Assembly: GCA_964348135.1 (NCBI GenBank)
Contig: CAYGBL010000002.1
Coordinates: 41,048 to 105,047 of the forward strand
Length of the DNA: 64,000 nucleotides
Source: an uncultured Actinomycetota bacterium
Lineage (GTDB): Bacteria; Actinomycetota; Aquicultoria; JACQXZ01; CAYGBL01
Direction: 5' to 3'
In this document: one piece after another, positions 5,834 through 60,113 of the stretch
Position numbering within the stretch: the first letter of the stretch is position 1
How the letters are laid out: every line of letters begins with the position of its first letter
Notes under the pieces: generated by a model
The model's database searches: none
What the model saw: the letters and a program-made list of their open reading frames with translations, nothing else
What the model was told of the DNA's origin: nothing
Program-made: the position numbers and the translations under genes

Positions 5834-5851
5834 AGAAAATCAGTCCTTTCT

Positions 5852-8518: not shown

Positions 8519-8672
8519 CGCCGATTAACCCCGTACTCTTTTATAAGACTTCTAAAGAATTCTTCTTCCTTCTTCAAAATCCTAGTGTATACGCTCTCCT
8601 GAGATATTGTGATAAAGTAGGTATTGTCTTTTCTCTAAAGAATATTTATAAATAGGATTTATATGCAAAATT

Positions 8673-12352: not shown

Positions 12353-12384
12353 AGTAATTTTTCTCTATCTATTCAAAAGAGTCT

Positions 12385-14247: not shown

Positions 14248-14461
14248 ATAATTTTTTCTTCTATTGAAGCTGAAAGAAGGCAAATTTTAACGATCAAACT
14301 TGATATCTCTCATGTGCAATACCAACAAACTGCTAAAATGGATAAAATTTTTGTTGCTCATGCAAAAAAGTGAAGGAAAATTTAAAAGGTGGTTGAATGT
14401 TATTATTATTAGTTTTATTATGAGCTATTAAACCTTAAGTATATGAGGAAGGAGCAATAGA

Positions 14462-15259: not shown

Positions 15260-15656
15260 AATTCAACCCTAAATTTACTGCTTTATAATCACAACTTGCT
15301 GCGAACCTGATGAGCCTTTTGCCAAAAATAGGAGAGACTGTATTTCAATTAATACTGCAACCACGAACGTAAACCATCAAGGTCAGACAAAGGCTTTAAC
15401 CCTAAGCCGAGTTGAATCCGCGTATCCTGTATTCCTATTTATTCTTAGTTCACTTACAATCTATTTACGTTGGAGACAGCAAGTTATTTCCGGTCCTGGT
15501 TGGGATCCTTTTGCTTTTCTAGCTAATGCCCTTAAATTTGCTGGAAAAGGTATTGGTTACAGTGAACTTCACCGGCCACCTATAATTTCTCTTTTAACTT
15601 CGCTTATATTTCGCACCGGATTTATCTCCGAATCCGCTCTTTTTCTGGTAGATGGA

Positions 15657-17615
15657 ATGCTCCTCCTTCTGGGAATAATGGGCTTTTACTATCTGCTAAA
15701 GCTCCGGTTTCCCAGCTGGTTAAGTTTAATAGGTGCTCTTCTTTTTCTTTCTTTCCCAATTGTTTTAAATATGGCAACCACTGGTTATACTGATCTTCCC
15801 AGTACGGCAATATCTATATGGGTTGTATATTTTCTAGTTCTTGCTCTAGAAAAAGATAGACGCTTTCATTGGTTTGCCTGGCCATTACTCATTCTTGCTG
15901 CGCTCACCCGTTTTACCGGGTTTCTTCTTCTAATTCCTATCCTCCCTCTTATGATAGGTAGAGCAAGCATAGTGAGAAATCTTAAAGATATCGCTCTCGG
16001 TTCCATTTTCTCCTTGATTATTCTCGTGCCTCTTATGATATTTTATGGCAGAGAGTTTACTGATCCCATATTTCCCTTTGCGCATGCCTTCTTTGCAGTT
16101 AGTGAGCCTGCACCTTATCTCGAAAGTTTCGCCCTCAAGCCTGATCTCTTCTGGTTCTTTAGGAACCTGAAAGACTTTACCCTACAACCGCCATTGACTG
16201 TGCTCTTTCCATTGCTTGCCTTTCTTGTAGGGCTGGGATTATCCCTATACATTTTTAATCTTATAAAAACCACAAAAATAGATATTTTACGTTATTCTTT
16301 CATAATTGCTGCTTTACTTTTCTACATCTTTGTATTTTTTAAATTCGGTTTTATTATCCGACAAACGGTACTAGTAATAATAGGCATACTTTTATATCTT
16401 CACTTCCAAAAGGCAAATACTAGAGAGATAGGTCTGGATATCATATTTCTTTTATGGTTTTTGACTTATTTTGACTTTCACAGCCACGATCCAATCAAAG
16501 TTGAACGCTACTTTGTAGTTATGGCACCGGGAGTTGTCTATGCCATTCTATTGAGCCTCAACAGCCTACTCAATTTCATTAGGATAAAGGTATTCAAAAT
16601 TTCTTTCTCCATACTTATGTCTCTGGTTCTATTACTGGCTATCTCATTTTCTTTGACAAGTGTATTTAATAGTAAAGGGGGGAAGGACATACTGGTTGAT
16701 GATGCTATTAAAACCAGTAAATGGCTCAAGAAAAATGATAGACAGCTATCCAAAGCCAAGATTTATTCTGATCTCTGGCCCATTTTCAGCTGGTATTTGA
16801 AGCAGAGGGTTGACCCTATGCCTTCCTTTAAAGACAAACGTGCATTCAATCACGAGTTGGAAAAATACGATATAGATTACTATCTCACGATTAGGGATCG
16901 GCAGTTACCCTCCTATGAAACTAAAGCTCAAATCGGTACTGTCACAGTATTAAAAAAGAATGCCAGCAAGGTTAGTAGAAAGACCCGTATTCTTTACCTG
17001 GGTATGAACTGGGAACATTACTTGGAGGAAATACTGGACTTTAAATACTTCATGTTCTATGAGCCAGGCAAATATTATCTAGGAAAATCACTATATATAG
17101 ATGGATATACTCTAGAAGAATTAAGAAAATATCCTCTTATTATTCTCTATAACTTCAGATGGCATAATCGAAAAAAAGCAGAATTCTTGCTTAAAAGTTA
17201 TGTTAAGTCAGGAGGCAGTATAATTATCGAAGCTTCTGGAAACAACGGGAGTATGCCTTATAACCTTGAAGGGGATACTTTCCTAGGTGTATCCGTCTTC
17301 CGCGAAGCTCTTCCTGCTAAACCTGTTATAAAATTTAACCCCAAGCTATCTGTCTCAGAACTGAATTTTTCACCCTTCTTATCCAACAGTCAACCCTGGT
17401 ATGGAATGACATACGAAAATCTGGATAAAGAGACGCCCTTTACTGTACTGGCAACTGCTGACGAACATACCCTAATAGCTGAGCAAAGAATAGACCGGGG
17501 AAGAATAATCTGGATAGGATTTAATTTGGTATGGCATTCTTTTAACAAGAAAAACAAAGAAGAACAAGAGCTGCTTCAGAGACTATTAACTTATGCACTC
17601 CAAAGAGATTATTAA
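15657..17615 (+). CDS. GT-C family membrane glycosyltransferase-like protein (ArnT/PMT-like), N-terminus probably extends upstream of first ATG
   Basis: Many TM helices are followed by a roughly 300-aa C-terminal soluble domain. The reading frame is open and TM-rich from 15273 onward, with no ATG, GTG or TTG. Confidence 0.6.
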   Translation: MLLLLGIMGFYYLLKLRFPSWLSLIGALLFLSFPIVLNMATTGYTDLPSTAISIWVVYFLVLALEKDRRFHWFAWPLLILAALTRFTGFLLLIPILPLMIGRASIVRNLKDIALGSIFSLIILVPLMIFYGREFTDPIFPFAHAFFAVSEPAPYLESFALKPDLFWFFRNLKDFTLQPPLTVLFPLLAFLVGLGLSLYIFNLIKTTKIDILRYSFIIAALLFYIFVFFKFGFIIRQTVLVIIGILLYLHFQKANTREIGLDIIFLLWFLTYFDFHSHDPIKVERYFVVMAPGVVYAILLSLNSLLNFIRIKVFKISFSILMSLVLLLAISFSLTSVFNSKGGKDILVDDAIKTSKWLKKNDRQLSKAKIYSDLWPIFSWYLKQRVDPMPSFKDKRAFNHELEKYDIDYYLTIRDRQLPSYETKAQIGTVTVLKKNASKVSRKTRILYLGMNWEHYLEEILDFKYFMFYEPGKYYLGKSLYIDGYTLEELRKYPLIILYNFRWHNRKKAEFLLKSYVKSGGSIIIEASGNNGSMPYNLEGDTFLGVSVFREALPAKPVIKFNPKLSVSELNFSPFLSNSQPWYGMTYENLDKETPFTVLATADEHTLIAEQRIDRGRIIWIGFNLVWHSFNKKNKEEQELLQRLLTYALQRDY

Positions 17616-18625
17616 TGTCCAGCTTTCAAACCTCGCTGCTCGTTTATTGGAGTCAATGAAAAGATTAGCCTTGAAGACATGCACATTCTTACTATCTCCC
17701 AATATGCGCTCCCTTGCTCTTTTAAGGAACACCTCATTGTATTACTGAAAGGGCTCAATGTTCTCCATATGATAAGCTTGGCTGCAAGCCCCACAATAGT
17801 AACTAACCTTAGGAGTTGAAATGTCCAAAAGCCGTAGTGCTTCCTGAAGAATCTCAGCATACTTCTTCTGCATTCTACTACACTCCACTTAACGTCACCA
17901 TTATCCATTTGACATACGCTTCGCGCGGCATAATGAAAAATCTCAGCTTTCGATAAATAATGAATACGCCATCCAGCTAGTTTTATGCGATAACACCAAT
18001 CGAGGTCCTGAGAGTAGAGGGGAAATCCCTCATCAAGTAGACCAACTTCCTCTACCGCTTCTCTTCTCACCATCATACAGGCAGCATCTAGAAGATCAAC
18101 ATCTTGGGAATCATCATGATTCCACCAGCTCATCAAATATTTTCCGAAAACCCTATTTTTGGGAAAAAGTGTATCAAGAGAAGTACCCTTTACTATTTCA
18201 CTAAAGAGTGTGGGGAAGGTGCGTGCACAGGTAAGCTGAATGCTGCCACCAGGATTCACAATTTTGCCACCGACTGCGCCCACTTCGCTCTGGTCATTTA
18301 GGTATTCTAGCATTAGATCCAGGGCACTAGGCATAACTATAACATCAGATCCGAGAAGCATAATATATTTTCCTGTACTTTCACTCAGCGCTTGATTCAA
18401 TGCAGCAGAGAGATATCGGTTTTCATTGTTTACGATCAGTCTCACTTGAGGAAAGTATTCCTGAACCATAGCTTCACTACCATCACAGGAGGCATTGTCT
18501 ACCACAACAACTTCAACTCTTGCTTTGGTGTTTCGGTAGATACTTCGTAATACGTTCCCTAGATAGTCTCTGGTATTCCAACTCACTAAGCAGATTGATA
18601 CATCCGTCATCTTCAGTAACGTCAT
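17612..18625 (-). CDS. Family 2 glycosyltransferase
   Basis: The motifs are VSICLVSWNT and VVVVDNASCDGS. Confidence 0.8.
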   Translation of the reverse strand: MTLLKMTDVSICLVSWNTRDYLGNVLRSIYRNTKARVEVVVVDNASCDGSEAMVQEYFPQVRLIVNNENRYLSAALNQALSESTGKYIMLLGSDVIVMPSALDLMLEYLNDQSEVGAVGGKIVNPGGSIQLTCARTFPTLFSEIVKGTSLDTLFPKNRVFGKYLMSWWNHDDSQDVDLLDAACMMVRREAVEEVGLLDEGFPLYSQDLDWCYRIKLAGWRIHYLSKAEIFHYAARSVCQMDNGDVKWSVVECRRSMLRFFRKHYGFWTFQLLRLVTIVGLAAKLIIWRTLSPFSNTMRCSLKEQGSAYWEIVRMCMSSRLIFSLTPINEQRGLKAGH

Positions 18626-18631
18626 CTATTC

Positions 18632-19807
18632 TTATTTCCTAAGTGCTTCTGAATATATTTCAACCATACGCCGGGCGTTACTCTCCATATCACACTCCTT
18701 GGGAAGCTTACAATTCTCAGCCACATTTTTATACAAATGGTCATCGGTAATTAATGAAGTAATTTTTTTTGCCAAATCATCTACATTTCGAGGTTCGACT
18801 AAGAAGCCGTTTCTACTATCCTTAATAACCTCTGGAGTACCACCAACACACGTTGCTACTACAGGTACACCGGAAGCTAGTGCTTCCATAATTAGCATTG
18901 GAAGACCTTCATCAAAACTGGGAAGAACAACTACATCTGCAGAATTAATCCAAAGAGGAACTTCTGCGTGCGGCCTTTCTCCCACAAATCGTACCTGCGC
19001 AGAAATCCCTAGTTTCAAAACCGTATCTTTGAGTTGTTCTTCTAAAGAACCTGTCCCTACAAGGATAAACAGAGTATCATGCTTTGCTTTAATTATCTGG
19101 ACTGCTGAATGCATTAAATACGCTAAACCCTTAACACGTATCAATCCGCCTGCAAATAGAACTATTTTTGATGTTTTAGGCAATCCCAATTTCTGCCGCA
19201 CAGCTTTCTTCTCCCTCTGTTTGAATAAGTGCTTATTTACACCCATATTAATTACTGTCATTTTTTCTTCGCCAATACCATATTCTCTTCTTATCTTTTC
19301 TTTCAAAACTTCGCTTACTGCAACTATATAGTCTGCTTTTCTTAAAACAAATTTTGCTGCCAGTCTGGCTAATTTACTCTTCTGTGGAAAAACCGTTATA
19401 TCGGCTCGATGAGCAGTTATTACAACTGGTTTCCTGCTCAGATATTTACCGACCACCACTCCTATCAGTCCAGTTGGTATTACCCAATGAGCATGTATCA
19501 ACTCAACGCGTTCACTACGAACTACTCGCCAAGTCTTAATTATTCCGGATATCAGATAGCTTGCTACTCGCACAATAGGAATCCTTTCATACTCTGCCAG
19601 AAATTTTTCTTCTGATAGAAAGGAGAAACGATAGACTCTTATAGAGTCTTGAGAAAGCAAAACCTCATCGGCAATGAAAATTCGAGGAACAACAATGACA
19701 ATATCGCAATTCATCTTTTTTATTTGAATTGCTTGATCTCTTATAAAGCTTCCACTATCAGCCTTTCTACTTGTGGGATAGGCGGCAGTGAGAAGGCAGA
19801 TTTTCAT
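18632..19807 (-). CDS. Family 4 (GT-B) glycosyltransferase
   Basis: The C-terminal EGLPMLIMEALASGVPVVAT matches the GT4 E-x7-E region. Confidence 0.8.
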   Translation of the reverse strand: MKICLLTAAYPTSRKADSGSFIRDQAIQIKKMNCDIVIVVPRIFIADEVLLSQDSIRVYRFSFLSEEKFLAEYERIPIVRVASYLISGIIKTWRVVRSERVELIHAHWVIPTGLIGVVVGKYLSRKPVVITAHRADITVFPQKSKLARLAAKFVLRKADYIVAVSEVLKEKIRREYGIGEEKMTVINMGVNKHLFKQREKKAVRQKLGLPKTSKIVLFAGGLIRVKGLAYLMHSAVQIIKAKHDTLFILVGTGSLEEQLKDTVLKLGISAQVRFVGERPHAEVPLWINSADVVVLPSFDEGLPMLIMEALASGVPVVATCVGGTPEVIKDSRNGFLVEPRNVDDLAKKITSLITDDHLYKNVAENCKLPKECDMESNARRMVEIYSEALRK

Positions 19808-20640
19808 TTCTCCTTCTCCTCTTCTGCTCCAACCAACATAAAAAAATAGCTATTACCAATCCAAGGAATGACCCTTTCATAATCATATCTCGAAAATAAA
19901 TACTGAATACATTTGGGAACAAGGGGACCAAGAGGAGGGATATAGAGGGAGGGAAGAACGTGACGCATAATTCCTTTTGAAACCACTCTCATATCACTCC
20001 CCTCCGCTATATTCTCAATCCATTTTGGACTAAATCTAGTAGTTTCGACTGGGCTAATATATTTGTCGGAGATCTTGATTTTTAGCTTTCTGGACAGAAA
20101 CCTCCCTATTCTTGCCTCGTAGCCGCGTAGACTCTTTACAACTGGTATATCACCTAAAAATATTCTCACTGCTGGTTTTCCCACTCTCTTTAACTCATCC
20201 ATAAATCTCGGTATCTCCTCTAGGCTCAAATAGTGAATCATCCCGTTGCATATAATTACATCAAAGGTTCGGTCCTTAAAAGGAAGAGTACAGCTGTCAG
20301 CCTGGGCAAAAAACAGGTTTTGGTATCTCTGAGAAGAGGAAATTCTTAAAAGCATTCCCAGAGAAAGATCGATACCTACGGCAGCCTTTACTAGTGGCGC
20401 AAAGGCCTTAAGAAACAGACCATTCCCACACCCAATATCCAGGAAACAGTCCGTCTTCCTCAAACTGAGACAATATTGAATTTTCTCAATATCTTTTTCA
20501 AGGAATTCTCTATTCCAAGTGTCAGGAGAGCCTCTCAGTATGTATTCATCTTCGATTGTCCTGGCACGTTTGTCAAACCAGGAAGCGACATTCTTCGACC
20601 TTCTTCCACCAGAATAACTGTAGTATCGCTGCTCTTTCAT
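19804..20640 (-). CDS. Class I SAM-dependent methyltransferase
   Basis: LDIGCGNG is motif I, followed by an acidic residue at the end of beta-2. Confidence 0.75.
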   Translation of the reverse strand: MKEQRYYSYSGGRRSKNVASWFDKRARTIEDEYILRGSPDTWNREFLEKDIEKIQYCLSLRKTDCFLDIGCGNGLFLKAFAPLVKAAVGIDLSLGMLLRISSSQRYQNLFFAQADSCTLPFKDRTFDVIICNGMIHYLSLEEIPRFMDELKRVGKPAVRIFLGDIPVVKSLRGYEARIGRFLSRKLKIKISDKYISPVETTRFSPKWIENIAEGSDMRVVSKGIMRHVLPSLYIPPLGPLVPKCIQYLFSRYDYERVIPWIGNSYFFMLVGAEEEKEK

Positions 20641-22427
20641 CTCGTCCTGGTTAACAACCTAACCTCAGTTCTTTCGCCTGCTCTAATTGTAGGCAGAGGT
20701 ACTAAGACATGCTCGTTTCGATCTATCAAATCTTCCTTGTTCCCGTCAATAGAAACCCCTTTAACAGGCAACTTCAATGGAATTGCTATGGACGAATTTG
20801 AAACCGTTTGTTCGCCCCGATTTTCCACTTCAAATAAAAGATTTTCAGCACCAACTTGATTGTCACTTTTAATTCTCAAATTTTCCCTCTTGCGCCACCA
20901 ATCTACCAGCTCACTAAGCTTGGCAATCCACACATCTTTACCTTTAACCAAGGTATAGAGATACCGCAGCAAATCCATACGCATCTCTGAATCTCTATCA
21001 CCATACACACCAGCGTGAGCCAAAAAGACATAAAGCCCACCAATGCTCTCAATCCAACCAAGCTTTCTCTTAAACACTTTTTTGCAGTCTTCCACATTCA
21101 AACCACTAAAGTAAGGCTCCATATCCTGGGGGCCAGTCAAAGGAAGCTCTAAAACTTCATACTCCTTAATTTCACTCCCGCCGCTAAATAGTCTAAAAGG
21201 AAAATTAAAAGATATACCTTTACCATTAAAAGTCCGCTTTAAGGAAGTATCAGTATCGACAAAAGAGGAATCAAAAGAGACATCCTGCTTCTCCAGCAGT
21301 TCGCCCAGGTCGGATGTTCTTTGCAGCCAGGGAGCTCGAAATCCTCGGATGCTTTTTCCTGTTACCTTCTCCAGTTTTAAAAACGAATCTCTAATTTCCA
21401 ATTCCCTTCTACTGCTACTTATGTTATGGAAGGTCCCATTATGGTAGAGACCATGAGAAATAACCTCATGTCCTTCCTCTTCTAATTTTTTTACGCTATC
21501 TTCAGGCAGGCAAAAGGGTGGTTCACTAACCAGAGAAATTGTCGATCTTATTGTAAGTTCCTTTAGTGTTTTAAGTAGTTTAGGTAATCCTTTATAATAG
21601 GCATATCTTCTCGGTTCTACATCATGAGTAAAACAAAAGGCATAAGCAAAGGCGCAAGGCCACTTCCATATTCTGGGAACAAAGTGGGACGACCAATCTA
21701 AGGCATTAATAAAGGTTTGGTATAGAACCCACCCCGAAGGGTCGATAGGTGCTTGTGTGGTAAAGTGATCCACTTTGCTCTGTCTCCTCCGAGCCTGTTT
21801 TAAAAGAATACGATATGTAGCTAGACGCAAATTATAGGGAGCTATTTGATAAGCAAAATTACTAATCAATGAAAGTGGCTTCTGCTTCTTATTGTTATCA
21901 GCATAACTTTCAGCAAGCAGGCTGGAAAAACTTCTACCAATATCAAAAGTAAATAAAAAATGACCATCTACTGAAACTATCGCAGGATATGACTTTCTAC
22001 TGACTTCCATCTCTGCCAGGACTTCCACACCAGAACGAATCTCACACTCTATCAATCCATCAACTGGAATAAAAACCTCTGATAAATCGAAGGAATTAAG
22101 AAGAAAAGTTACCTTTTTAAACACCGGCCCTTTTTTAAATCTTAAAATACCTTTTTTAGTTCTCACTGTACTTCTACAAGAAATCCCAAAAATATTCTCT
22201 ACCAGCTCTTTACTCTGTTTCCCATCTTCCAAAGTCGAAAGTACAAAAAATATTTTAGTATCTATGGCTGGTTTAAATTCTTGTCTCAGTTCTTTTACGT
22301 CTAGCAAAGTAACTCCAGGGTATTCTGGACAATTTGCACTGCTAAAAGATATACCCTCGGTTCTTAGCACAACTGATAATCCATAAAGTGACTGACTAGA
22401 AGCAATAATTAGAGACTGCATACTCAT
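20637..22427 (-). CDS. Polysaccharide deacetylase (CE4/NodB-fold) with extra N-terminal domain
   Basis: The C-terminal half has the CE4-like motifs FTHDVEP, ISHGLYH and FRAPW. It resembles the polysaccharide-locus deacetylases found in exosortase EPS loci. Confidence 0.6.
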   Translation of the reverse strand: MSMQSLIIASSQSLYGLSVVLRTEGISFSSANCPEYPGVTLLDVKELRQEFKPAIDTKIFFVLSTLEDGKQSKELVENIFGISCRSTVRTKKGILRFKKGPVFKKVTFLLNSFDLSEVFIPVDGLIECEIRSGVEVLAEMEVSRKSYPAIVSVDGHFLFTFDIGRSFSSLLAESYADNNKKQKPLSLISNFAYQIAPYNLRLATYRILLKQARRRQSKVDHFTTQAPIDPSGWVLYQTFINALDWSSHFVPRIWKWPCAFAYAFCFTHDVEPRRYAYYKGLPKLLKTLKELTIRSTISLVSEPPFCLPEDSVKKLEEEGHEVISHGLYHNGTFHNISSSRRELEIRDSFLKLEKVTGKSIRGFRAPWLQRTSDLGELLEKQDVSFDSSFVDTDTSLKRTFNGKGISFNFPFRLFSGGSEIKEYEVLELPLTGPQDMEPYFSGLNVEDCKKVFKRKLGWIESIGGLYVFLAHAGVYGDRDSEMRMDLLRYLYTLVKGKDVWIAKLSELVDWWRKRENLRIKSDNQVGAENLLFEVENRGEQTVSNSSIAIPLKLPVKGVSIDGNKEDLIDRNEHVLVPLPTIRAGERTEVRLLTRTR

Positions 22428-22440
22428 GTCACTTCCTCAA

Positions 22441-23499: not shown

Positions 23500-24520
23500 G
23501 ATCCCTTAATCTAGTATCATTAGAATTTTTTGCCTTTAAATTATTCTTCTGTATCCTGTAAAGTTCCCTCTTTAGACTTACTATCTGTGTTGCCACAAAT
23601 CCAAAGAAAAAGACTTGAATTCCGGCAACTATGAGAGTAACGGTAACTGCCATAAGAGGTCTATCAGGATTCAGTCGGCCTTGTAACCAGGTTGTAAAAA
23701 GAAAGCTGGCACAGATAAAGCCAGAAATAACCATTATAGCTCCCATAGCTCCGAAGAGCATAGCGGGTTTCTCATAGAAAGAGAACATCAAATGAGAAAG
23801 AATAGTTGCGCGCAAATGTAATTTTGACTTACCATTTTCCCTGGCTCTCAACATTGCTGGTATTTCTCTAATATGATGGCCTAAAGCAAGGGATTTGGCC
23901 AATATTTCCAGATGAATCTCCTTATCTTCTGATTCCAATTCCAGCTCATCAAAGACTCTCTTGCGGTAGGCCCTTAAAATACCAGTTATAGTTCGTAGTC
24001 TTCCTGGTAGTGCAAAACCTAGAAGTCTATTACCGATTTTGCTTAAAATCAATCTGTTATACGGAACTCCTACTACTTTTCCTCCCTTAGAATAAGGAGA
24101 TCCGACCACAATATCCAAAGATTGATCACTCTCTAACTCTCTAACCAACTTGGAAATATGATCCGCACTATAGGAAAGATCCGCATCCAGCGTCACCCAG
24201 ATGTCTCCTTGAGCAAAACTAAACCCTGTTCTCAAAGCACGCCCCCGACCATAGTTGGCAGAATGAGATAGAACCAGAATATGATCATTTGCAGAGGCTA
24301 TACTTTTAGCCAGCTCATAAGTACCATCAGTGCTCCCATCATCAACAATGATAAGCTCCCAGCTGGGAAAGTCTTTAAGCTCATCTACCACTTTTCCCAT
24401 AGTATTTACTACATTTTCTTCCTCATTATACATAGGGATGATAACCGAAATGTCCAAACTGACTCCCATCCAGACTAGATTACTAAGCGAATTCAGATGA
24501 GCTATCACATTCATTCGCAA
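23450..24520 (-). CDS. Polyprenyl-phosphate glycosyltransferase (GT2, GtrB/ArnC/DPM1-like) with C-terminal TM helices
   Basis: The motifs are ISVIIPMYNEE, IIVDDGSTDGT and DADLS, plus two C-terminal TM helices. The true start may be the internal Met MGVSL. Confidence 0.8.
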   Translation of the reverse strand: MRMNVIAHLNSLSNLVWMGVSLDISVIIPMYNEEENVVNTMGKVVDELKDFPSWELIIVDDGSTDGTYELAKSIASANDHILVLSHSANYGRGRALRTGFSFAQGDIWVTLDADLSYSADHISKLVRELESDQSLDIVVGSPYSKGGKVVGVPYNRLILSKIGNRLLGFALPGRLRTITGILRAYRKRVFDELELESEDKEIHLEILAKSLALGHHIREIPAMLRARENGKSKLHLRATILSHLMFSFYEKPAMLFGAMGAIMVISGFICASFLFTTWLQGRLNPDRPLMAVTVTLIVAGIQVFFFGFVATQIVSLKRELYRIQKNNLKAKNSNDTRLRDHDLNFSVITAGRRKLE

Positions 24521-24824
24521 CCGAATGCTGAATTCCTTCTTCTTCTATCTTTTAATCCGCCTGAAGACTCAACTTCTCACTATTTAGCGATATGGGAGCT
24601 AAGAGATTTATTTCAGTCTCCAACTTTTGGCACCAATATAGCTGTTAGCTGTTTATAATTATCGAAGGTAGGACCTTTTTATATGGCAGAGAACAAAGTA
24701 ATGGCCTATGTTCTTTGAAAATAATTCAGCTAATAATTTCTTTTATAAAATTTATTTTCTATTCAAAGGTCTAAAGATGCTAAGGAAGAATACTTATTTA
24801 TTAGCCTTCATGAGAGAACTTAAT

Positions 24825-25943
24825 ATGAAGATACTTTCCATTGTAGGTGCAAGACCTCAATTTATAAAAGCTGCTATGGTTTCAGGTGAGATCCGCAAGA
24901 ACCATCAAGAGATTCTCCTTCACACAGGCCAGCATTACGATACCAATCTTTCTCAACTCTTTTTCGATGAGCTATCCCTTCCTCAAGTAGATTACCATCT
25001 CGGCATAGGCTCTGATACGCATGGCAGGCAGACCGGAAAGATGCTCGCTGCGGTCGAAGAAGTGCTATTTCGAGAGAGTCCTGACTTGGTTATCGTTTAC
25101 GGAGATACTAACTCTACTCTGGCAGGTGCGCTGGCTGCGGCAAAACTTAATATACCGGTTGCTCATGTCGAGGCGGGGCTGAGAACCTACAATAAAACAA
25201 TACCGGAAGAAATCAATAGAACAGTTACGGATTGTGTATCGAATCTTCTATTTGCTCCTACCCAATCAGCAGTCAAGAATCTCAGAAAGGAGGGTATAAA
25301 CAAAGGAGTTCATAACACCGGGGACGTGATGTACGATGCAGTTCTTAAATACAAAAAGATTGCAGAGGAAAGGTCAGAAATCCTAAAGATACTGGACTTG
25401 GAATCAAAGAAATTTCTCGTGGCTACCATTCATCGAGCTGGAACCACTGATAATCCGGCCAGGCTAAGATCCGTAATAGAGGCACTTTCACAGATCGATG
25501 AGTTAATCATCTTTCCCGTTCATCCCCGCACGCGCAAAGCACTTGAAGTATTGGAACTATTGCCATTAAAGCAAGACCTTATTCGATTAATTCATCCTGT
25601 AGGATATCTGGATATGCTTATGCTGGTTAAGTCTGCACGGTTAGTAATAACTGATTCAGGAGGACTACAGAAAGAAGCCTACTTCCTAAAAACTCCGTGT
25701 GTTACCTGTATGGATGAAGATGAGTGGCCAGAAACAACTACAGCTGCAGCAAACAGGCTGGTGAGTACCGATACAGGAAAGATTATTGAAGCGGTAAGGC
25801 GACCCTACTTCCCTATAAAAGATGCCGATGAGTTTGGAGATGGCCATGCTGCCGAGAAAATGGTCAATATTATAGAGAGAATCTCAGATACTAGCGATTC
25901 AAAGGATATATATTCTTTTTCTTCTGTGCAACTAAGTTTATAG
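24825..25943 (+). CDS. wecB: UDP-N-acetylglucosamine 2-epimerase (non-hydrolysing)
   Basis: The sequence matches WecB/MnaA along its whole length (MKILSIVGARPQFIKAAMV, HTGQHYD, VHVEAGLRT). Homology and an SD-like sequence support a start at 24825 rather than the ORF-track start at 24708. Confidence 0.85.
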   Translation: MKILSIVGARPQFIKAAMVSGEIRKNHQEILLHTGQHYDTNLSQLFFDELSLPQVDYHLGIGSDTHGRQTGKMLAAVEEVLFRESPDLVIVYGDTNSTLAGALAAAKLNIPVAHVEAGLRTYNKTIPEEINRTVTDCVSNLLFAPTQSAVKNLRKEGINKGVHNTGDVMYDAVLKYKKIAEERSEILKILDLESKKFLVATIHRAGTTDNPARLRSVIEALSQIDELIIFPVHPRTRKALEVLELLPLKQDLIRLIHPVGYLDMLMLVKSARLVITDSGGLQKEAYFLKTPCVTCMDEDEWPETTTAAANRLVSTDTGKIIEAVRRPYFPIKDADEFGDGHAAEKMVNIIERISDTSDSKDIYSFSSVQLSL

Positions 25944-26060
25944 TGCGGGCACTTTCTAAGCTAAGTACCATGAAAATTTTGAACAGAGCTTGTATAATTC
26001 ACTACTTGATCACTCCCAAGTTTTTTTGAAAAAAAAATAGATAAAAGAGAATAGAATAAA

Positions 26061-27446
26061 TTGCAAGTATTACTCCTTAATCCTCCTCTTCAACATAAAA
26101 CCGTTGCTCGAGACATGGCAGGCGGCCTTGGCTTTGAGGTTGGAAATCATACAATTCTTCCTCCTCTTAATCTGGCATTAATGGCCTCTATTCTGCGCAT
26201 AAACGGACATAAGGTAAAAATCCTTGATCCTCAGGTGGAAGATCTTAGCAAAAGAGATTTTCTTTCGCTAATTATTTCTTTAGAACCAGAGGTTATCATT
26301 GGAAATATCTCTCTACCTTCCTTGAAAGAGGATGCATCTTTCCTAAAGGAGTTAAAAAATATTACCGGAGCAAGAATCATCCCCAGTACTGATATTAATT
26401 TTACTCCCATCCTGCAAGAAATACTTCTTTTAACCGGTGCCCGCGTCTGTATGCTTGGGGAGTGCGAACTTGAGATTGAAGAAATTATTAAAGGAAAGAT
26501 AGCGTCCGGTGTGGCCTTCCGTGAAAAGGAAAGGATCCAGCTCTTACCCTGTGAGCCCGTTAAAAACCTTGAACTACTCCCCATTCCCGCCCGTGATCTT
26601 CTCCGTAATGACAGATACTTATTTCCTTTCCTGGGAGCTAAAACTACCACTATGCAAACCAGCCGCGGCTGCCCCTTCTCCTGTTCTTATTACTGTCCCT
26701 ATCCGTTGATTCAAGGTGAAAAATGGCGGGCCATGAGTGCAGAACGGGTATATGCAGAATTAGAAGACATTGCAAACAACCTCACCATCTCTAACATATT
26801 CTTCCGTGATGCTTGCTTCACTCTCAATAAAGAAAGAACTGCTCAAATATGCGATCTCTTGATTAAAAATAAGCTTAATCTCACCTGGTGGTGTGAAACC
26901 CGCATAAATTGCTTGGACCGCGAAATTCTTTTCCAAATGAAAAACGCGGGGTGTAAAGGTATTAATATTGGTGTCGAAACAGGAAACCCACAAATTCTGA
27001 GTTCACAGGCAAAAGAAGGGGTTACAATAAGCAGTCTTAAGAGTTTATGCGAATTCGCTACTCGTGCAGGATTGCATCTGCATTTTCTCTTGCTGGTAGG
27101 TCTCCCTCAGGAGAACCGGAATTCTCTCTATGATACCTTCAAACTGGTAAGAGAACTCAAACCTGCTTCTCTGGGAATATCAGTAGTAACTCCCTATCCA
27201 GGAACACCTCTTTACTTCGATGCCAAGGAAAGAGGATGGATTGAGACAAGCGACTGGGAAAAGTACTCAGGAGATCATGCTGTCATGCATACCGACAAGT
27301 TGAGCAGCTTTGATATAACGTTTGCCCAAAAGATGCTCCAAGGTAGCTCTTTTCTCTCGAAACGTTCTGGTTTTGCAGCTTCCATTAGTCTGGGCATGCT
27401 TGATCAATTTTTTAGAGTATGGTCTTCCTTTGGGAACCCGAAATGA
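26061..27446 (+). CDS. B12-binding-domain radical SAM protein (class B), non-canonical CX3CX3C cluster motif
   Basis: An N-terminal cobalamin-binding-like domain is followed by a radical SAM core. The cluster motif is RGCPFSCSYYCPY, giving cysteine spacing 3 and 3 where 3 and 2 is usual. Confidence 0.7.
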   Translation: MQVLLLNPPLQHKTVARDMAGGLGFEVGNHTILPPLNLALMASILRINGHKVKILDPQVEDLSKRDFLSLIISLEPEVIIGNISLPSLKEDASFLKELKNITGARIIPSTDINFTPILQEILLLTGARVCMLGECELEIEEIIKGKIASGVAFREKERIQLLPCEPVKNLELLPIPARDLLRNDRYLFPFLGAKTTTMQTSRGCPFSCSYYCPYPLIQGEKWRAMSAERVYAELEDIANNLTISNIFFRDACFTLNKERTAQICDLLIKNKLNLTWWCETRINCLDREILFQMKNAGCKGINIGVETGNPQILSSQAKEGVTISSLKSLCEFATRAGLHLHFLLLVGLPQENRNSLYDTFKLVRELKPASLGISVVTPYPGTPLYFDAKERGWIETSDWEKYSGDHAVMHTDKLSSFDITFAQKMLQGSSFLSKRSGFAASISLGMLDQFFRVWSSFGNPK

Positions 27447-28420
27447 AAACAAAAACAGCTTTCTTAACAGGTAGCACAGGATTCATAGGGAAGCAATTGC
27501 TATTCAAACTTCTTAATCATAATTACAGGGTTTACAGTTTGGTACGAGATAATAATCAATTCTCCTCTTCTCTTTACAGCCATCCCCAGTTAATTACCCT
27601 CAAAGGCAAACTCAGCGATCTTACTGTTTTGCGAAAAGGCACTGCAGATGCCATTGTCGTTTTTCATCTTGCTTCGTCCCTCAGGCTGTTCGAGAAGAGA
27701 ACTGAACTTTACCATACAAACATCAAGGGAACCGAGAATCTGCTCAAAGCCTGTGGCCAAGCTAATCGTAAAATAAGGTTTATCTTCACCAGTAGTATTG
27801 AAGCTATAGGACCCAGTTCACAAGAATCTGCAAAACCTCCAGACACTCCTTCTCCCATTACAGATTACGGGAAATCCAAGCTCCAGGCAGAGAAAATCAT
27901 AAGAGCCTTTTGCCAAACACATCCTAACGTTACCTACACTATAGTCCGTGCAGGAAATGTTTATGACCTACAAAATGGTATAGTAAAGGCTATAGCGGAA
28001 ATTCTTAAAAGCGGCGGTTGGAAAGCGGCCCTCCTTTATCATATGTTTAAAGACCATTCTTTCTCTTTAATACACCTGAGGGATCTTTTGGATATACTAA
28101 CGCTTGTTGCCGTCAGTGAACAAGCTGAAAATAAAACTTACTTTGCGGTAGGAGAATCACTATCTATTAAGAAAATTATCTCAATAATCGAGCAAGGATC
28201 CAGAGTAAAAAAGGAATTGCCAACAACAGCATTCAGTAAAACAATGCTCGCTTTCTGGAATTTGGGGATAAAAGCAACAAAACAGAGTGACCTAATATCT
28301 TATCTCAGTTTATGTGGAAAAAGGAAATTTCAAAATTATTATGATGACCATATTGTTGCTGACTTGCACTATATTCCTAAAACCAGATTCGACCTTTGCT
28401 TTAAACAAAGTATTCAATGA
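27443..28420 (+). CDS. NAD-dependent epimerase/dehydratase (SDR family)
   Basis: FLTGSTGFIGKQL is the Rossmann GxxGxxG motif. The start overlaps the upstream stop in an ATGA arrangement. Confidence 0.8.
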   Translation: MKTKTAFLTGSTGFIGKQLLFKLLNHNYRVYSLVRDNNQFSSSLYSHPQLITLKGKLSDLTVLRKGTADAIVVFHLASSLRLFEKRTELYHTNIKGTENLLKACGQANRKIRFIFTSSIEAIGPSSQESAKPPDTPSPITDYGKSKLQAEKIIRAFCQTHPNVTYTIVRAGNVYDLQNGIVKAIAEILKSGGWKAALLYHMFKDHSFSLIHLRDLLDILTLVAVSEQAENKTYFAVGESLSIKKIISIIEQGSRVKKELPTTAFSKTMLAFWNLGIKATKQSDLISYLSLCGKRKFQNYYDDHIVADLHYIPKTRFDLCFKQSIQ

Positions 28421-29382
28421 GAATCTCTGTCATTATACCCACCTGTAACCGAAAAGAGATCCTTGGACGAACACTAAACGCTCTAAACAAACAGCACTAT
28501 CCTCAAGATGAATACGAGGTAATAATTGTTGATGATGGCAGTACTGATGGAACTTTAACCCACGTCTTGCAGCTGGCTCCAAAGTTGCATACTAAAATCA
28601 TCCTTCTGCAACAAAAACAGCAGGGACCAGCAGCAGCAAGGAACTTGGCTATTAAAGAAGCTAATGGAGAAATTTTACTATTCCTAAATGATGACACGGT
28701 TGCCGCTCCTGACCTCCTTCAGCAACATATGAAATTGCATGAAAAAGAACCGGATCTCAGAAATGGCGTCTTGGGCCGCGTAGTCTGGTCACCGGACATC
28801 AAGATTACCCCTTTTATGTATTGGCTGGAACACGGAGGTCCTCAATTTAAATACGATGAGATTAGGCAAGGAGAGATTAGCTGGCGCTACTTCTGGACTT
28901 GTAATCTTTCCCTTAAGCGGTACTTTCTTATTCAAAACGGCGTATTCGATGAAGACTTTCCTTATGCTGCCTGGGAAGATATAGAGTTAGGTTATAGATT
29001 GAGCAAATGCGGCCTGAAACTCCTCTATAACGAAGCTGCAGTCGGCTACCACTACCACAATATCACTCTGGAATCAGCAAAGGAAAAGATGCTGCTACAC
29101 GGCTGGAGTGCGACTATAATGGACAGAAAGGTTCCTCACGAAGCAAAACCATCCTCCCTCAAATATCCCTATAAACAGATTATTAGAACGTTAGATAATA
29201 TTCTGCTTTGCAAACCTACAATGTTCCTATTCTGGAGATTATCCAGGATAGCAGAAGATCGTGTCGCTCTAGGTTTTTTATTCAACCTAGTCACTTTACA
29301 TTACCGTATAGAAGGTCAAAGAAAAGCAGAGCTTGCCTTTAAAAAGAGAGAGCGAGGAGATAATGAAAGTCGTTGTAGCTAA
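28417..29382 (+). CDS. Family 2 glycosyltransferase
   Basis: The motifs are ISVIIPTCNR, VIIVDDGSTDGT and NDD. Confidence 0.8.
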   Translation: MRISVIIPTCNRKEILGRTLNALNKQHYPQDEYEVIIVDDGSTDGTLTHVLQLAPKLHTKIILLQQKQQGPAAARNLAIKEANGEILLFLNDDTVAAPDLLQQHMKLHEKEPDLRNGVLGRVVWSPDIKITPFMYWLEHGGPQFKYDEIRQGEISWRYFWTCNLSLKRYFLIQNGVFDEDFPYAAWEDIELGYRLSKCGLKLLYNEAAVGYHYHNITLESAKEKMLLHGWSATIMDRKVPHEAKPSSLKYPYKQIIRTLDNILLCKPTMFLFWRLSRIAEDRVALGFLFNLVTLHYRIEGQRKAELAFKKRERGDNESRCS

Positions 29383-30787
29383 CTCAGTAGGTAAAGATGC
29401 TAAAGGTAACCACTTCATCCATTTTCCCAGTCGCTGGACTGCCTGTGTAGGTAGGATTAAAGATTTTACCTATTATCCCTACGAGTTGGCTTACCTTTCT
29501 TCCCTTCTGAAGAAACGAACCAACCTGAAAGTGAAAATGGTAGATGGGAATCTTCTTCAGCTTAATGCTGAAGAATATTTTGATCTTCTGCTCAAAGAAG
29601 AACCGGATTGGCTGATTATGGAAACTTCAACGGCTGTCTACTCCGAGGATTTAAAACTTGCTTCCGCCATAAAAAGGCATTTGGGAACAAAGATCATCTT
29701 TACCGGTCAGCATCCCACTGCCTTCCCCCAAGAAGTCTTAGCCGACGGTGTGGATTTCGTATGCAGAGGAGAGTATGAGTTAACCGTACTTGCTCTTCTA
29801 CAAGGGAAAGATCCCAGAATTATAAAGGGTCTATATCCCAACCCGTCTGGAAATCTAGTAGATCTCAATCAATTACCTCTACCAGAGGACAAGGATATTT
29901 CACGCTTAAATTATGCTGGTATCAGTGGATGCGATTATAAAGAAATTGAGCTTTTTGCTTCTCGGGGCTGCCCTCTCTCCTGTATATTTTGCGTCTGCGG
30001 AAATCTATATTACAATCGGCCAAACTGGCGTCCCAGAAACATCAATGAAATTATCTCCGAAATCAATTATTTAAAAGAGCGATACCCGGAAATGGAAGGA
30101 ATATTTTTTGATGAGGAACAACACAATGGAAACAAACAGTTTGTTCATGTTCTCTCTGAAGAAATAGTCAAACACAAGCTAAATAGACTGAAATTCAGCG
30201 CAATGTGTAACTATTGGAACCTTGATGCTGAAATACTAAGATCGATGAAACAAGCAGGCTATTATAAACTTCGAATTGGAATCGAAACAGCAAGCATAAA
30301 AGTAGCTGACACAATACGTAAACCAATTAACATCCAAAAACTAAAAGAAGTGCTAAGAGAAGCCAAGAAAGCTGGAATTCGTATGTATGGAACTTTCATT
30401 TTTGGAGCTCCAGGATCTAGCAGAGAAGAAGATACCAAAACTATTCGTCTCCTATACCAATTGATTACGGAGAATCTACTTTCAGATTTTCAGTCATCCA
30501 TCTGCGTACCTCAACCAGGTACACCCTTCTACCAATGGGCAGAGGAAAACGGTTATCTGACTACTAAAGATTGGCGGAAGTACGATGGTTATAGGGCAGT
30601 CGTCAGCTATCCTCACTACCCAAAAGAAGCAATCGAGGAAATCTTCCAACTAAGCTGGCGTGTATGCGCAGCTAAGAGGATCAAACGCCTACCAGAGATT
30701 CCATATCTTGTGGCCAATCGATTGAAGAGATATGGTTTCTCACAGACAGCACGGGATATATTTAGAACGCTGCGAACTCACTTTTAA
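29363..30787 (+). CDS. B12-binding-domain radical SAM protein (class B), canonical CX3CX2C
   Basis: The cluster motif SRGCPLSCIFC is canonical. An SD site (GAGCGAGGAGA) lies before the ATG at 29363. It is a paralogue of the gene at 26061-27446. Confidence 0.75.
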   Translation: MKVVVANSVGKDAKGNHFIHFPSRWTACVGRIKDFTYYPYELAYLSSLLKKRTNLKVKMVDGNLLQLNAEEYFDLLLKEEPDWLIMETSTAVYSEDLKLASAIKRHLGTKIIFTGQHPTAFPQEVLADGVDFVCRGEYELTVLALLQGKDPRIIKGLYPNPSGNLVDLNQLPLPEDKDISRLNYAGISGCDYKEIELFASRGCPLSCIFCVCGNLYYNRPNWRPRNINEIISEINYLKERYPEMEGIFFDEEQHNGNKQFVHVLSEEIVKHKLNRLKFSAMCNYWNLDAEILRSMKQAGYYKLRIGIETASIKVADTIRKPINIQKLKEVLREAKKAGIRMYGTFIFGAPGSSREEDTKTIRLLYQLITENLLSDFQSSICVPQPGTPFYQWAEENGYLTTKDWRKYDGYRAVVSYPHYPKEAIEEIFQLSWRVCAAKRIKRLPEIPYLVANRLKRYGFSQTARDIFRTLRTHF

Positions 30788-32202: not shown

Positions 32203-32204
32203 TC

Positions 32205-33104: not shown

Positions 33105-33240
33105 ATTTCAGCCATCTCACAAAATAATAACATCACTATATAGAAACTGACAATACTAGCAGACATTCAGCTATCAGATCCAGGACACTACTATTATGTT
33201 TATCTTAAGAGATAAATAGAAAAGAAACGTGTGGGACTTA

Positions 33241-34221: not shown

Positions 34222-34247
34222 TTTTCCTCCCATCTAAAACAAGAGTT

Positions 34248-59862: not shown

Positions 59863-59879
59863 TATGCAGACAAACCAAT

Positions 59880-60100: not shown

Positions 60101-60113
60101 GGAGGTGAAAATA

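Follow-up and report, generated by a model that had tools for sequence, protein, structure and literature searches.

AprD4, an enzyme of apramycin biosynthesis, is a radical S-adenosylmethionine (SAM) 1,2-diol dehydratase, whose product is reduced by the NADPH-dependent AprD3, which results in C3' deoxygenation (PMC5461906). The operon of the exosortase XrtG has been described in Lactiplantibacillus plantarum, where it encodes XrtG, glycosyltransferase(s) of the TIGR03111 family and a Firmicu-CTERM protein (PMC12854382). HpnJ belongs to the B12 radical SAM enzymes without being a methylase; it has been proposed to contract the ring of the glucosamine carried by a hopanoid (PMC9204698). Relatives of these proteins are encoded together in the locus analyzed in the present study, which lies within a 64-kb stretch of DNA (hereafter the window) of an uncultured Actinomycetota bacterium (contig CAYGBL010000002.1 of GCA_964348135.1, positions 41,048–105,047). 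The initial annotation proposed a surface-glycan locus at positions 15273–30787 of the window, and this interpretation was borne out. All parts of the locus fall within known kinds of system. Two of its features are uncharacterized: (i) a triad of genes for an AprD4-like enzyme, a short-chain dehydrogenase/reductase (SDR) and a family 2 glycosyltransferase (GT2), as a recurrent module of polysaccharide loci, and (ii) a branch composed of a GtrB-like GT2, a FemAB-family transferase and a deacetylase of carbohydrate esterase family 4 (CE4), which would feed a membrane glycosyltransferase of the GT-C type beside an XrtG-like exosortase.

On balance, we lean towards regarding the locus as one composite envelope-glycoconjugate system built on an XrtG-like exosortase operon, with an Arn-like lipid-linked aminosugar branch and a portable deoxysugar cassette. 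Such a system would consist of (i) a core comprising a Ser/Thr-rich sorting-signal protein, the exosortase, a synthase-like GT2, the GT-C, the GtrB-like GT2, a family 4 glycosyltransferase (GT4) with a methyltransferase and, usually, WecB, (ii) a lineage-specific insertion in the minus-strand operon, i.e. the cytoplasmic CE4 protein and the FemAB-family transferase, and (iii) a portable four-gene cassette encoding the AprD4-family radical SAM enzyme, the SDR, a GT2 and an HpnJ-like B12 radical SAM enzyme.

Comparison with the described systems revealed the following similarities and differences. As in the AprD4/AprD3 pair, there is a full-length AprD4 match with a CX3CX3C motif and an N-terminal Rossmann-like domain, and the gene of a nicotinamide-dependent oxidoreductase is translationally coupled to it. 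However, the window enzyme belongs to a separate clade and is encoded, together with a GT2 dedicated to it, in a polysaccharide locus rather than an aminoglycoside cluster; an extended SDR is its putative partner, which can be likened to AprD3 by position. With the Arn pathway the locus shares its logic and three folds (an ArnC-like GT2, a cytoplasmic CE4 protein and an ArnT-like GT-C). It differs in that the window lacks ArnA, ArnB and ArnE/F, the CE4 protein is a three-part enzyme of 596 amino acids (aa), and a FemAB-family transferase and a methyltransferase are added. A lipid A acceptor is unlikely, because an LPXTG protein is encoded in the window and the XrtG family is of Gram-positive type. 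With three-component extracytoplasmic glycosylation of the GtrA/GtrB/GtrC and CsbB/YfhO types, the locus shares a GtrB-like GT2 paired with a polytopic GT-C, and the two are conserved together. In contrast to these, the window encodes no GtrA-family flippase (the related contig L042 has an LPG_synthase_TM-type protein beside GT-C), and the sugar is apparently edited chemically before its transfer.

Similarly to the XrtG system, an exosortase with XrtG as its best match is followed by a GT2 with TIGR03111 as its best match, and a secreted protein with a motif, a transmembrane (TM) helix and a basic tail is encoded next to them. Here, both enzymes score below the respective cut-offs, the tail signal is not Firmicu-CTERM, and GT-C and the lipid-linked branch have been added. 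Exopolysaccharide (EPS) loci of the XrtA/PEP-CTERM type have in common with the window a FemAB-family gene beside a CE4 gene in an exosortase-linked glycan locus, and the FemAB-family protein aligns end to end with TIGR03019. The window CE4 protein, in contrast, shares only the fold with TIGR03006 and carries extra N- and C-terminal domains, and the exosortase is XrtG-like. Finally, among named families the second radical SAM protein comes closest to HpnJ, which acts in the HpnI/HpnK/HpnJ branch of hopanoid side-chain biosynthesis, and GT2 and deacetylase genes are present in both cases, but the window contains no hopanoid genes, and orthologues of the enzyme are found in polysaccharide loci of Patescibacteria, Omnitrophota and Planctomycetota.

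The AprD4-like radical SAM cassette

In both radical SAM proteins of the locus (Table 1) the radical SAM core is preceded by a Rossmann-type domain at the N-terminus. The first one matched AprD4 (PDB 6fd2) with an E value of 1.9e-68 (residues 3–426 against 9–428); over ~420 aa the identity was 36% according to HMMER and 34% according to BLASTP. Its score against NF033070 (282.3 bits) is below the equivalog cut-off (500). Residues C204, C208 and C212 form a CX3CX3C motif, which aligns with GCPYPCRFYC of 6fd2 and was invariant in 14 members of the family. Lv et al. 2016 are said to have described CX3CX3C as the characteristic motif of AprD4. We detected at least 120 protein clusters with 44–62% identity to the window enzyme, the members of which are 30–34% identical to AprD4 itself. 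By sequence, the enzyme belongs to this large sister clade of AprD4 and is not an equivalog.

The initial annotation considered both proteins to be cobalamin-dependent (class B) radical SAM enzymes, which it took to suggest an unusual C-methylation or epimerization of a sugar. This classification stood for the second protein, whose score with the Pfam B12-binding domain exceeds the cut-off (42.5 versus 32.1 bits). It did not hold for the first, an AprD4-family member with the CX3CX3C motif and a score below the same cut-off (26.8 bits), and the chemistry postulated for it is not supported. AprD4 binds no cobalamin, though it is found in class B similarity networks (2026 review, PMC12931638). 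Judging from these matches, only the HpnJ-like enzyme looks truly B12-type. Sugar deoxygenation is thus more likely than C-methylation for the first enzyme, given its homology to AprD4 and its CX3CX3C motif, together with the adjacent SDR and GT2 genes in Wzx/Wzy-type loci.

The HpnJ-like enzyme reached 181 bits with TIGR03471 (HpnJ; cut-off 577.6) and has the canonical CX3CX2C motif. In similarity networks HpnJ clusters near the C-methylases Fom3 and MoeK5 (PMC9204698), and the window enzyme may perform either C-methylation or a ring rearrangement. The SDR retains intact GxxGxxG and Y142xxxK146 motifs, and its gene overlaps the stop codon of the first radical SAM gene by 4 nucleotides (nt), which indicates translational coupling; the start codon given in the public record differs from that called in the window.

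The distribution of the cassette was surveyed in one genome per species (33 loci), and 20 loci, containing a homologue of at least 39% identity and adequate flanks, were treated as informative. An extended SDR gene was adjacent to the AprD4-like gene, on the same strand, in 16 of the 20 informative loci, an orthologue of the window GT2 (33–49% identity) in 18, and both genes in 14. A second radical SAM orthologue (at least 40% identity) was present within 6 kb, on the same strand, in five. Orthologues of the HpnJ-like enzyme (45–71% identity) adjoin the AprD4-like gene in L002, L010, L012, L015, L020, L023 and L030, and the order radical SAM-SDR-GT2-radical SAM is also found in L002 and in three Patescibacteria genomes. 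The surveyed taxa comprised Omnitrophota, Elusimicrobiota, Nitrospirota, Planctomycetota (Scalindua), Patescibacteria, Desulfobacterota, Ignavibacteriota, Gammaproteobacteria and Myxococcota, and the triad was also detected on a short Methanoregulaceae contig. Where annotated, the surroundings of the triad elsewhere are ordinary Wzx/Wzy/Wza/Wzc polysaccharide loci (e.g. in Scalindua and on another contig). Nothing was found in the literature on radical SAM deoxysugar modules in capsule or O-antigen loci.

The idea that CE4 is a general companion of the triad, which would imply glucosaminide substrates like those of AprD4 and HpnJ, was dropped as a general rule, since of the 33 genomes no more than four (Scalindua, L018, Nostoc and Wenzhouxiangella, the last two with GT2-CE4 fusions) have a CE4 gene at a distance of up to 10 kb. 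The AprD4-like homologues of Nostoc calcicola (FACHB-3891) and Wenzhouxiangella are distant (36–37% identity) and have no adjacent SDR gene. In both strains an open reading frame (ORF) for a GT2+CE4 protein of ~595 aa (L028, 11043–12827; L029, 4839–6629) is placed ~2.5 kb downstream of the homologue.

The lipid-linked branch and the exosortase unit

Extracytoplasmic transfer from a lipid-linked sugar by the GT-C/GtrB-like pair is a well-founded prediction. GT-C exceeds the Pfam cut-offs of PMT_2 (35.6 versus 26.1 bits) and PTPS_related (46.6 versus 26.4 bits), at least nine TM helices are predicted, and its relatives bear the NCBI label 'glycosyltransferase family 39'. An AlphaFold2 (AF2) model built from 29 homologues (pLDDT 88, pTM 0.85) retrieved ArnT first in a Foldseek search (5f15/5ezm; E 5e-8, TM-score 0.61), followed by STT3/AglB/PglB, ALG9/12, AftA and Pmt1/2/4. 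Asp55, located in the first outer loop (GPGWD), is unchanged across the 29 homologues. The C-terminal ~290 residues form a soluble domain, which in the Foldseek search of the model resembled STM3548/IFT52-type GATase1-like folds.

The GT-C frame is open from position 15273 and contains no in-frame ATG, GTG or TTG codon before 15657. The segment 15273–15656 codes for ~100 N-terminal residues that are conserved in the relatives, including GPGWD of the catalytic loop. Translation is likely to start at a non-canonical ATT codon (15342), placed 7 nt after AGGAG at 15330. In the public record GT-C was called as a truncated protein of 614 aa, whereas its homologues have 754–797 aa.

The best NCBIfam scores of the GtrB-like GT2 were those of AglJ (116 bits) and ArnC (104 bits). 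Its top PDB matches (Pyrococcus DPMS 5mlz, ArnC 9bhc/8vxh and Synechocystis GtrB 5eke) are all polyprenyl-phosphate glycosyltransferases, and two TM helices (253–271 and 291–309) are located at its C-terminus. Orthologues with 51–77% identity were identified in L038, L040, L042 and L043. The pairing of this protein with GT-C, already noted in the initial annotation, was found in the window and in all four readable related contigs (L040, L038/L041, L042, L043).

The CE4 protein encoded by the same operon consists of an N-terminal domain, the CE4 core (~255–500) and a C-terminal beta domain. Among solved structures, HP0310 PgdA (3qbu) and 3rxz are the nearest to it, and the motifs THD, HxxxxH, RxPW and LxH (LAH) are invariant. 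This architecture is rare: a word-indexed search of 5.8 billion sequences yielded six clusters, and a profile search of 1.84 billion representatives yielded 59 proteins at E≤1e-30, of which a handful cover the N-terminal domain. The AF2 model, obtained with six sequences, was poor (pLDDT 61), and only the match of the CE4 core was trusted; the GATase1-like match of the modelled N-terminal domain is therefore tentative. No TM helix or signal peptide was predicted for the CE4 protein or for the FemAB-family protein, which suggests that both act in the cytoplasm, as does ArnD and unlike exported polymer deacetylases.

The FemAB-family protein was closest to the XrtA-associated family TIGR03019, with an alignment over the full length and 205.6 bits (cut-off 260). 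The view that this is an exosortase-type FemAB protein is thus upheld as regards the closest family, and not as regards the threshold. For the deacetylase, the corresponding assignment is contradicted by its score with the XrtA-locus deacetylase family TIGR03006 (27.4 bits, cut-off 276). Domain searches gave no reason to move either protein to an unrelated family. The FemAB-family gene is located immediately upstream of the CE4 homologue in 4/4 contexts, and the quartet encoding the GtrB-like GT2, FemAB, CE4 and methyltransferase proteins is kept in the window, L040 and L038, while other genes of the locus vary. The simplest reading of the operon headed by the GtrB-like gene, based on the ArnC/ArnD/ArnT logic, is that a lipid-linked N-acetylhexosamine (HexNAc) would be deacetylated and then re-acylated. 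By analogy only, this reading also recalls the NodB, NodA and NodS steps of Nod-factor synthesis.

The exosortase scored 91.6 bits with XrtG (TIGR03110; cut-off 102.75) and passed the cut-off of the exosortase/archaeosortase signature TIGR04178 (54.9 versus 23 bits). Its orthologue in L040 (59% identity) scored 93.7 bits with XrtG. TIGR03111 was the best match of the membrane GT2 (271 bits, cut-off 364; PgaC/IcaA 105 bits), for which TM helices are predicted, and its orthologues adjoin the exosortase and/or GT-C in L040, L042 and L043. The position of the PRC-barrel gene is kept in L040 and L041. The protein encoded at 10511–11314 has a hydrophobic N-terminal segment and a TM helix at 209–227. 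The pattern Y-[SK]-[IV]-P-x-[LF]-[GD], followed by a hydrophobic helix and basic residues, ends the exosortase-neighbour proteins of the window, L040, L043 and L042, and we infer that the window protein is an exosortase substrate.

In L042 (4974–7994) the presumed substrate continues in frame, at its C-terminus, into an exosortase domain, giving a protein of 1006 aa in the order surface protein, YSVPTLG-TM-RFRRRR signal, exosortase; the fusion may be genuine or may reflect a missed stop codon.

Extent, conservation and surroundings of the locus

The segment 15273–30787 is filled by 12 consecutive ORFs, whose coordinates agreed with the initial annotation and whose families were all reproduced by Pfam, NCBIfam or PDB searches. 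As shown in Table 1, they are organized in three tightly packed transcription units. Genes of the minus-strand operon overlap by 50, 4 and 4 nt or are separated by 13 and 6 nt, and the last four genes of the plus-strand operon overlap by 4, 4 and 20 nt. GT-C belongs to a plus-strand unit (11765–17615) that encodes the XrtG-like exosortase, the membrane GT2, the PRC-barrel protein and GT-C, and the left boundary at 15273 was therefore drawn too narrowly. The whole system extends over ~20 kb (~10.5–30.8 kb; 10511–30787), since the exosortase unit and the GtrB-like GT2 recur together in the relatives. The link with an exosortase was confirmed (in the window, L040, L043 and L042), but not the distance of ~6 kb given for xrtG: the xrtG-like gene ends at 12352, i.e. 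3 kb from the start of the 12-gene segment and 8–10 kb from the CE4 and FemAB-family genes.

Table 1. Genes and transcription units of the exosortase-linked glycan locus (positions in the window)
Feature	Position	Strand	Matches and remarks
Candidate exosortase substrate	10511–11314	-	Secreted Ser/Thr/Asn-rich protein; C-terminal motif, TM helix, basic patch (YKIPTLDSYLF...KRGVL)
XrtG-like exosortase, 195 aa	11765–12352	+	TIGR03110, TIGR04178, Pfam Exosortase_EpsH
Membrane GT2, synthase-like, XrtG-associated type, 620 aa	12385–14247	+	TIGR03111
PRC-barrel protein, 265 aa	14462–15259	+	Pfam PRC; between membrane GT2 and GT-C
GT-C, ArnT/GT39-like, ~757 aa	15342–17615	+	PMT_2, PTPS_related; C-terminal extracytoplasmic domain; no canonical start codon
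Soluble GT2, 337 aa	17612–18625	-	Glycos_transf_2, 90.9 bits; L040 orthologue, 64% identity
GT4, 391 aa	18632–19807	-	Glycos_transf_1, 146 bits; TuaC-like, 191 bits (cut-off 550)
Class I SAM methyltransferase, 278 aa	19804–20640	-	Methyltransf_11/25; 4-nt overlap with neighbours
Three-part CE4 deacetylase, predicted cytoplasmic, 596 aa	20637–22427	-	Polysacc_deac_1 over aa 280–381
FemAB-family (GNAT Acetyltransf_6) transferase, predicted cytoplasmic, 352 aa	22441–23499	-	Acetyltransf_6, FemAB, TIGR03019
Polyprenyl-phosphate GT2 (GtrB/ArnC/DPMS/AglJ-like), 356 aa	23450–24520	-	NCBIfam and PDB matches, TM helices
WecB, UDP-GlcNAc 2-epimerase	24708–25943	+	TIGR00236, 320.6 bits (cut-off 210)
AprD4-family radical SAM, putative sugar 1,2-diol dehydratase, 461 aa	26061–27446	+	NF033070, PDB 6fd2
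Extended SDR, putative keto-reductase partner, 325 aa	27443–28420	+	Pfam Epimerase
Soluble GT2, 321 aa	28417–29382	+	EpsD-like, 202 bits (cut-off 370); no TM helix; co-travels with AprD4-like gene
HpnJ-like B12-binding-domain radical SAM, 474 aa	29363–30787	+	Pfam B12-binding, Radical_SAM
Unit: exosortase-unit tail (GT-C)	15342–17615	+	Converges on minus-strand operon
Unit: minus-strand operon	24520 down to 17612	-	GtrB-like GT2, FemAB, CE4, methyltransferase, GT4, GT2
Unit: plus-strand operon	24708–30787	+	WecB, radical SAM, SDR, GT2, radical SAM

Relatives of the locus were identified by a protein search for GT-C homologues and subsequent reading of the matched contigs; two scans of metagenome contigs, one with the GT-C sequence by itself and one with an alignment of two sequences, detected no relative. 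The same genes in the same order, with 48–71% aa identity and only WecB missing, are present in L002 (extended as L040, a JGI metagenome contig). As in the window, genes for a sorting-signal protein, an exosortase, a 671-aa GT2 and a PRC-barrel protein are located upstream of GT-C in L040, and the right-hand neighbour is again a gltA-like NADPH oxidoreductase gene. Conservation of the gene order at ~60% aa identity marks the locus as a conserved one rather than an accidental series of ORFs.

In L043 (GT-C 48% identical) the locus contains genes for a sorting-signal protein, an exosortase, a membrane GT2, WecB, a GT4::methyltransferase fusion and a GtrB orthologue (54% identity). L042 (GT-C 47%) is organized in the same way, but its exosortase is fused to the 1006-aa substrate and an LPG_synthase_TM-type protein is encoded after GT-C. 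The GT4 and methyltransferase genes that are fused in L042 and L043 are separate in the window. The order exosortase, membrane GT2, GT-C is the same in L040 and L043, and also in L042, with the fused exosortase. L041/L038 (GT-C 66%) carry genes for a PRC-barrel protein, several GT4s, Wzx and four other radical SAM proteins, then methyltransferase, CE4, FemAB and GtrB-like genes, followed by wecB and the gltA-like neighbour. L044, from a metagenome-assembled genome (MAG) of Methanobacteriaceae (GT-C 40%), encodes a GT4, a methyltransferase, a GT2, Wzx, another GT2, WecB, a UDP-sugar dehydrogenase and a chitin-synthase-like GT2, with no exosortase gene within 10 kb. This cluster was compared by gene type, its small GT2s included. 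WecB is encoded in L038, L042, L043 and L044 but not in L040.

The conserved core is composed of GT-C, the GtrB-like GT2, GT4 with the methyltransferase, WecB and the membrane GT2. The exosortase is linked to this core in the bacterial lineage (4/4 informative contigs). Additions to the core are the pair of FemAB and CE4 genes and the radical SAM cassette on the right. In L038 (12995–18092) and L041 (10304–13404), which hold the closest relative of the left operon, the AprD4-like cassette is replaced by four different radical SAM genes, of which two encode proteins with B12-binding domains, one a SPASM-type protein and one a plain radical SAM protein, accompanied by genes for Wzx and a nucleotidyltransferase. 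It thus seems that the glycan island varies in its radical SAM tailoring. A teichuronic or teichoic acid cluster was rejected as a candidate, given that the TuaC and TuaG matches are far below the cut-offs, and comparison with known teichoic-acid and S-layer clusters gave no match above cut-off.

Contig JABAOH010003833.1 matches the window with 99.86% identity; it is part of GCA_012974985.1, which was assembled from pooled metagenomes of deep marine sediments in the Gulfs of Kathiawar Peninsula (PMC8319310). In this NCBI record (L001, 9024–9040; ~25100 of the window, inside wecB) a 17-nt insertion, in which NN and a duplicated GGAGATACTAACT are found, breaks wecB up, so that two genes were called; the window does not contain it and has an intact ORF of 411 codons. 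The two sequences differ by 12 single bases elsewhere, which points to another assembly of the same population. This population is also represented by a contig of 172.8 kb. The G+C content of the locus is even (~40%), and in a promoter and terminator scan of 11.2–31 kb such sites were no more frequent than in shuffled sequence.

The right-hand neighbours (30844–36345, minus strand) encode an NfnAB/GltD-like pair (a gltA-type NADPH oxidoreductase and a DHOD-B-like FAD/FeS subunit), a BcrAD/BadFG ATPase and two DUF2229 activase-type proteins. These genes also border the glycan locus in L038, L040, L042 and L043, which places the glycan island at a fixed chromosomal site. Further to the right (38669–40189, minus strand) lies the gene of a DUF11-repeat surface protein with an LPFTG sortase signal, 23 consecutive prolines and GDNPGKGH(E/Q) repeats; its presence indicates that the organism also uses classical sortase anchoring. 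Between this gene and clpB there is a 1.3-kb segment (40244–41573) of 34% G+C, without ORFs of at least 100 aa and without Rfam matches at the gathering threshold. An M-box magnesium riboswitch (59874–60045, plus strand; Rfam RF00380, 136.8 bits) precedes the gene of an MgtE transporter (60105–61916), which has an N-terminal PRC-barrel. Other PRC-barrel proteins are encoded at 14462–15259 and 63181–63768.

Signalling genes flank the exosortase operon (4100–10040 and 49285–50808); they code for a REC-only response regulator, an 888-aa histidine kinase and a GAF-GGDEF cyclase. An EAL phosphodiesterase (8673–10040) and a weakly EAL-like protein (4100–5461) are encoded near the operon. The equivalent position in L042 and L043 is occupied by genes for a histidine kinase and a LytTR regulator. 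The flanking genes of the window suggest that the synthase-like GT2 may be under cyclic di-GMP control.

Proposed mechanism, alternatives and significance

A mechanism can be proposed for the composite system, all steps of which are drawn from homology and gene linkage. On the inner side of the membrane, the GtrB-like enzyme would attach HexNAc to polyprenyl phosphate, using UDP-GlcNAc or UDP-ManNAc made by WecB. The cytoplasmic CE4 protein would strip the N-acetyl group, comparably to the removal of a formyl group by ArnD, and the FemAB-family enzyme would re-acylate the freed amine with aminoacyl-tRNA or another acyl donor. After flipping, GT-C would move the modified sugar to an acceptor outside the cell, either the polymer produced by the membrane GT2 or the sorting-signal protein. 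Separately, the AprD4-like enzyme would abstract hydrogen from a sugar and eliminate a vicinal hydroxyl, the SDR would reduce the resulting ketone to give a deoxy sugar, the co-travelling GT2 would supply the substrate or install the product, and the HpnJ-like enzyme would add a further radical step, C-methylation or ring rearrangement. More specifically, it is possible, though in our estimation somewhat short of even, that the AprD4-like/SDR/GT2 triad is an unrecognized cross-phylum deoxysugar module and that it is combined here with exosortase-linked, Arn-like deacetylation and re-acylation preceding export by GT-C.

Several observations weigh against this interpretation. Family searches of the 64-kb window revealed no priming phosphoglycosyltransferase, Wzx, Wzy, ABC exporter or GtrA-type/small flippase, which leaves the export and assembly route of the products of the soluble GT2 and GT4 enzymes unexplained. 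This gap could be accounted for in one of three ways: (i) such genes are located elsewhere in the genome, (ii) the backbone is made and exported by the membrane GT2, or (iii) by analogy with archaeal Agl systems, the soluble glycosyltransferases build on a polyprenyl-monophosphate sugar. The CE4 protein matched none of the ArnD models and could act on a lipid-linked or nucleotide-linked sugar or on an oligosaccharide. Dependence on tRNA is not common to all FemAB-family/Acetyltransf_6 proteins. At 34–36% identity and 282 bits against 500, conservation of the AprD4 reaction type is not guaranteed by sequence; the SDR gene is missing from 4 of the 20 informative loci, and the nearest PDB relatives of the SDR include both epimerases and reductases, which sequence alone does not separate. 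The exosortase, its partner GT2 and the FemAB-family protein all score below their NCBIfam cut-offs, and neither the 10511–11314 product nor the other exosortase-neighbour proteins gave an NCBIfam match at E≤1, Firmicu-CTERM included.

One alternative is an archaeal Agl-like protein glycosylation, in which the GtrB/AglJ-like enzyme primes polyprenyl monophosphate, an oligosaccharide is built and tailored on it by the soluble GT2, GT4 and methyltransferase together with the radical SAM and SDR enzymes, and GT-C transfers it en bloc to the exosortase substrate. This would account for the missing phosphoglycosyltransferase and agrees with AglJ (116 bits) as the best NCBIfam match of the polyprenyl-phosphate GT2, with weak AglG and Agl16 matches of the GT2s and GT4, and with the similarity of the GT-C model to AglB, PglB and STT3. 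Moreover, Methanobacteriaceae homologues of GT-C (37–41% identity) have GT4, methyltransferase, GT2 and WecB neighbours, and a sorting-signal protein is encoded beside the exosortase in four lineages. We nevertheless regard this alternative as unlikely: the best matches of GT-C are ArnT and GT39/PMT_2, i.e. enzymes that take single sugars from polyprenyl monophosphate, reading of the GT-C sequence revealed no oligosaccharyltransferase motif of the WWDxG type, all Agl-family scores are far below the cut-offs, and no flippase was identified in the window. Less probable again is the view that the two radical SAM enzymes both depend on cobalamin and act on a glycan sugar by C-methylation or epimerization, with FemAB/CE4 as a standard exosortase-EPS module. 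Its strength lies in the Rossmann-type domain joined to the radical SAM core in both proteins, in the B12-binding match of the HpnJ-like enzyme and the proximity of HpnJ to the sugar/alkyl C-methylases Fom3 and MoeK5 (PMC9204698), and in TIGR03019 as the best family of the FemAB-family protein. However, it conflicts with the AprD4 homology, CX3CX3C motif and sub-threshold B12-binding score of the first enzyme, with the lack of cobalamin in AprD4 (PMC12931638), and with the low score of the CE4 protein (27 bits against the TIGR03006 cut-off of 276). In addition, the conserved neighbour of the first enzyme is a nicotinamide-dependent SDR, reminiscent of the AprD4/AprD3 dehydration-reduction pair.

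Two further alternatives assume a product other than an envelope glycan. Deacetylases, GT4s and radical SAM enzymes are found together in specialized-metabolite clusters. AprD4 is known only from aminoglycoside biosynthesis (PMC5461906), so an aminoglycoside-like or glycolipid product could be envisaged. Yet the window contains no gene for 2-deoxy-scyllo-inosose synthase, an aminotransferase, resistance or an exporter, the triad is located among Wzx, Wzy, Wza and Wzc genes in other phyla, and here it is linked to an exosortase, a synthase-like GT2 and GT-C, which makes such a cluster very improbable. We find it scarcely credible that the genes specify a hopanoid-type lipid head-group pathway (HpnA/HpnI/HpnK/HpnJ-like), with GlcNAc placed on a lipid, deacetylation and ring contraction by the HpnJ-like enzyme. 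The HpnJ (181 bits) and HpnA (78 bits) models are the best NCBIfam matches of the second radical SAM protein and the SDR, respectively, but these scores are far below the cut-offs (577 and 368), neither squalene-hopene cyclase nor HpnH is encoded in the window, and orthologues of the radical SAM protein occur in polysaccharide loci of Patescibacteria and Omnitrophota. HpnK belongs to another family than CE4. Nevertheless, a deacetylase and GT2s are present in the locus, and the substrate of HpnJ is a glucosaminide (PMC9204698).

If the triad is indeed a cross-phylum deoxysugar module, radical dehydration followed by reduction would constitute a route to deoxysugars that is separate from nucleotide-sugar 4,6-dehydratases and from pathways dependent on pyridoxamine phosphate (PMP). 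The left half of the locus gives a testable function, amine editing of a lipid-linked sugar, for the long-unexplained pair of FemAB-family and deacetylase genes of exosortase loci, and the locus links an XrtG-like exosortase, a member of a family without known biochemistry, to a GT-C/GtrB glycosylation route. An AprD4 sister clade with close links to reductase and glycosyltransferase genes, found in the polysaccharide loci of many and mostly uncultured phyla, would bring the chemistry of AprD4 to cell envelopes, and would point to new deoxy or rearranged sugars on the surfaces of bacteria of candidate phyla.

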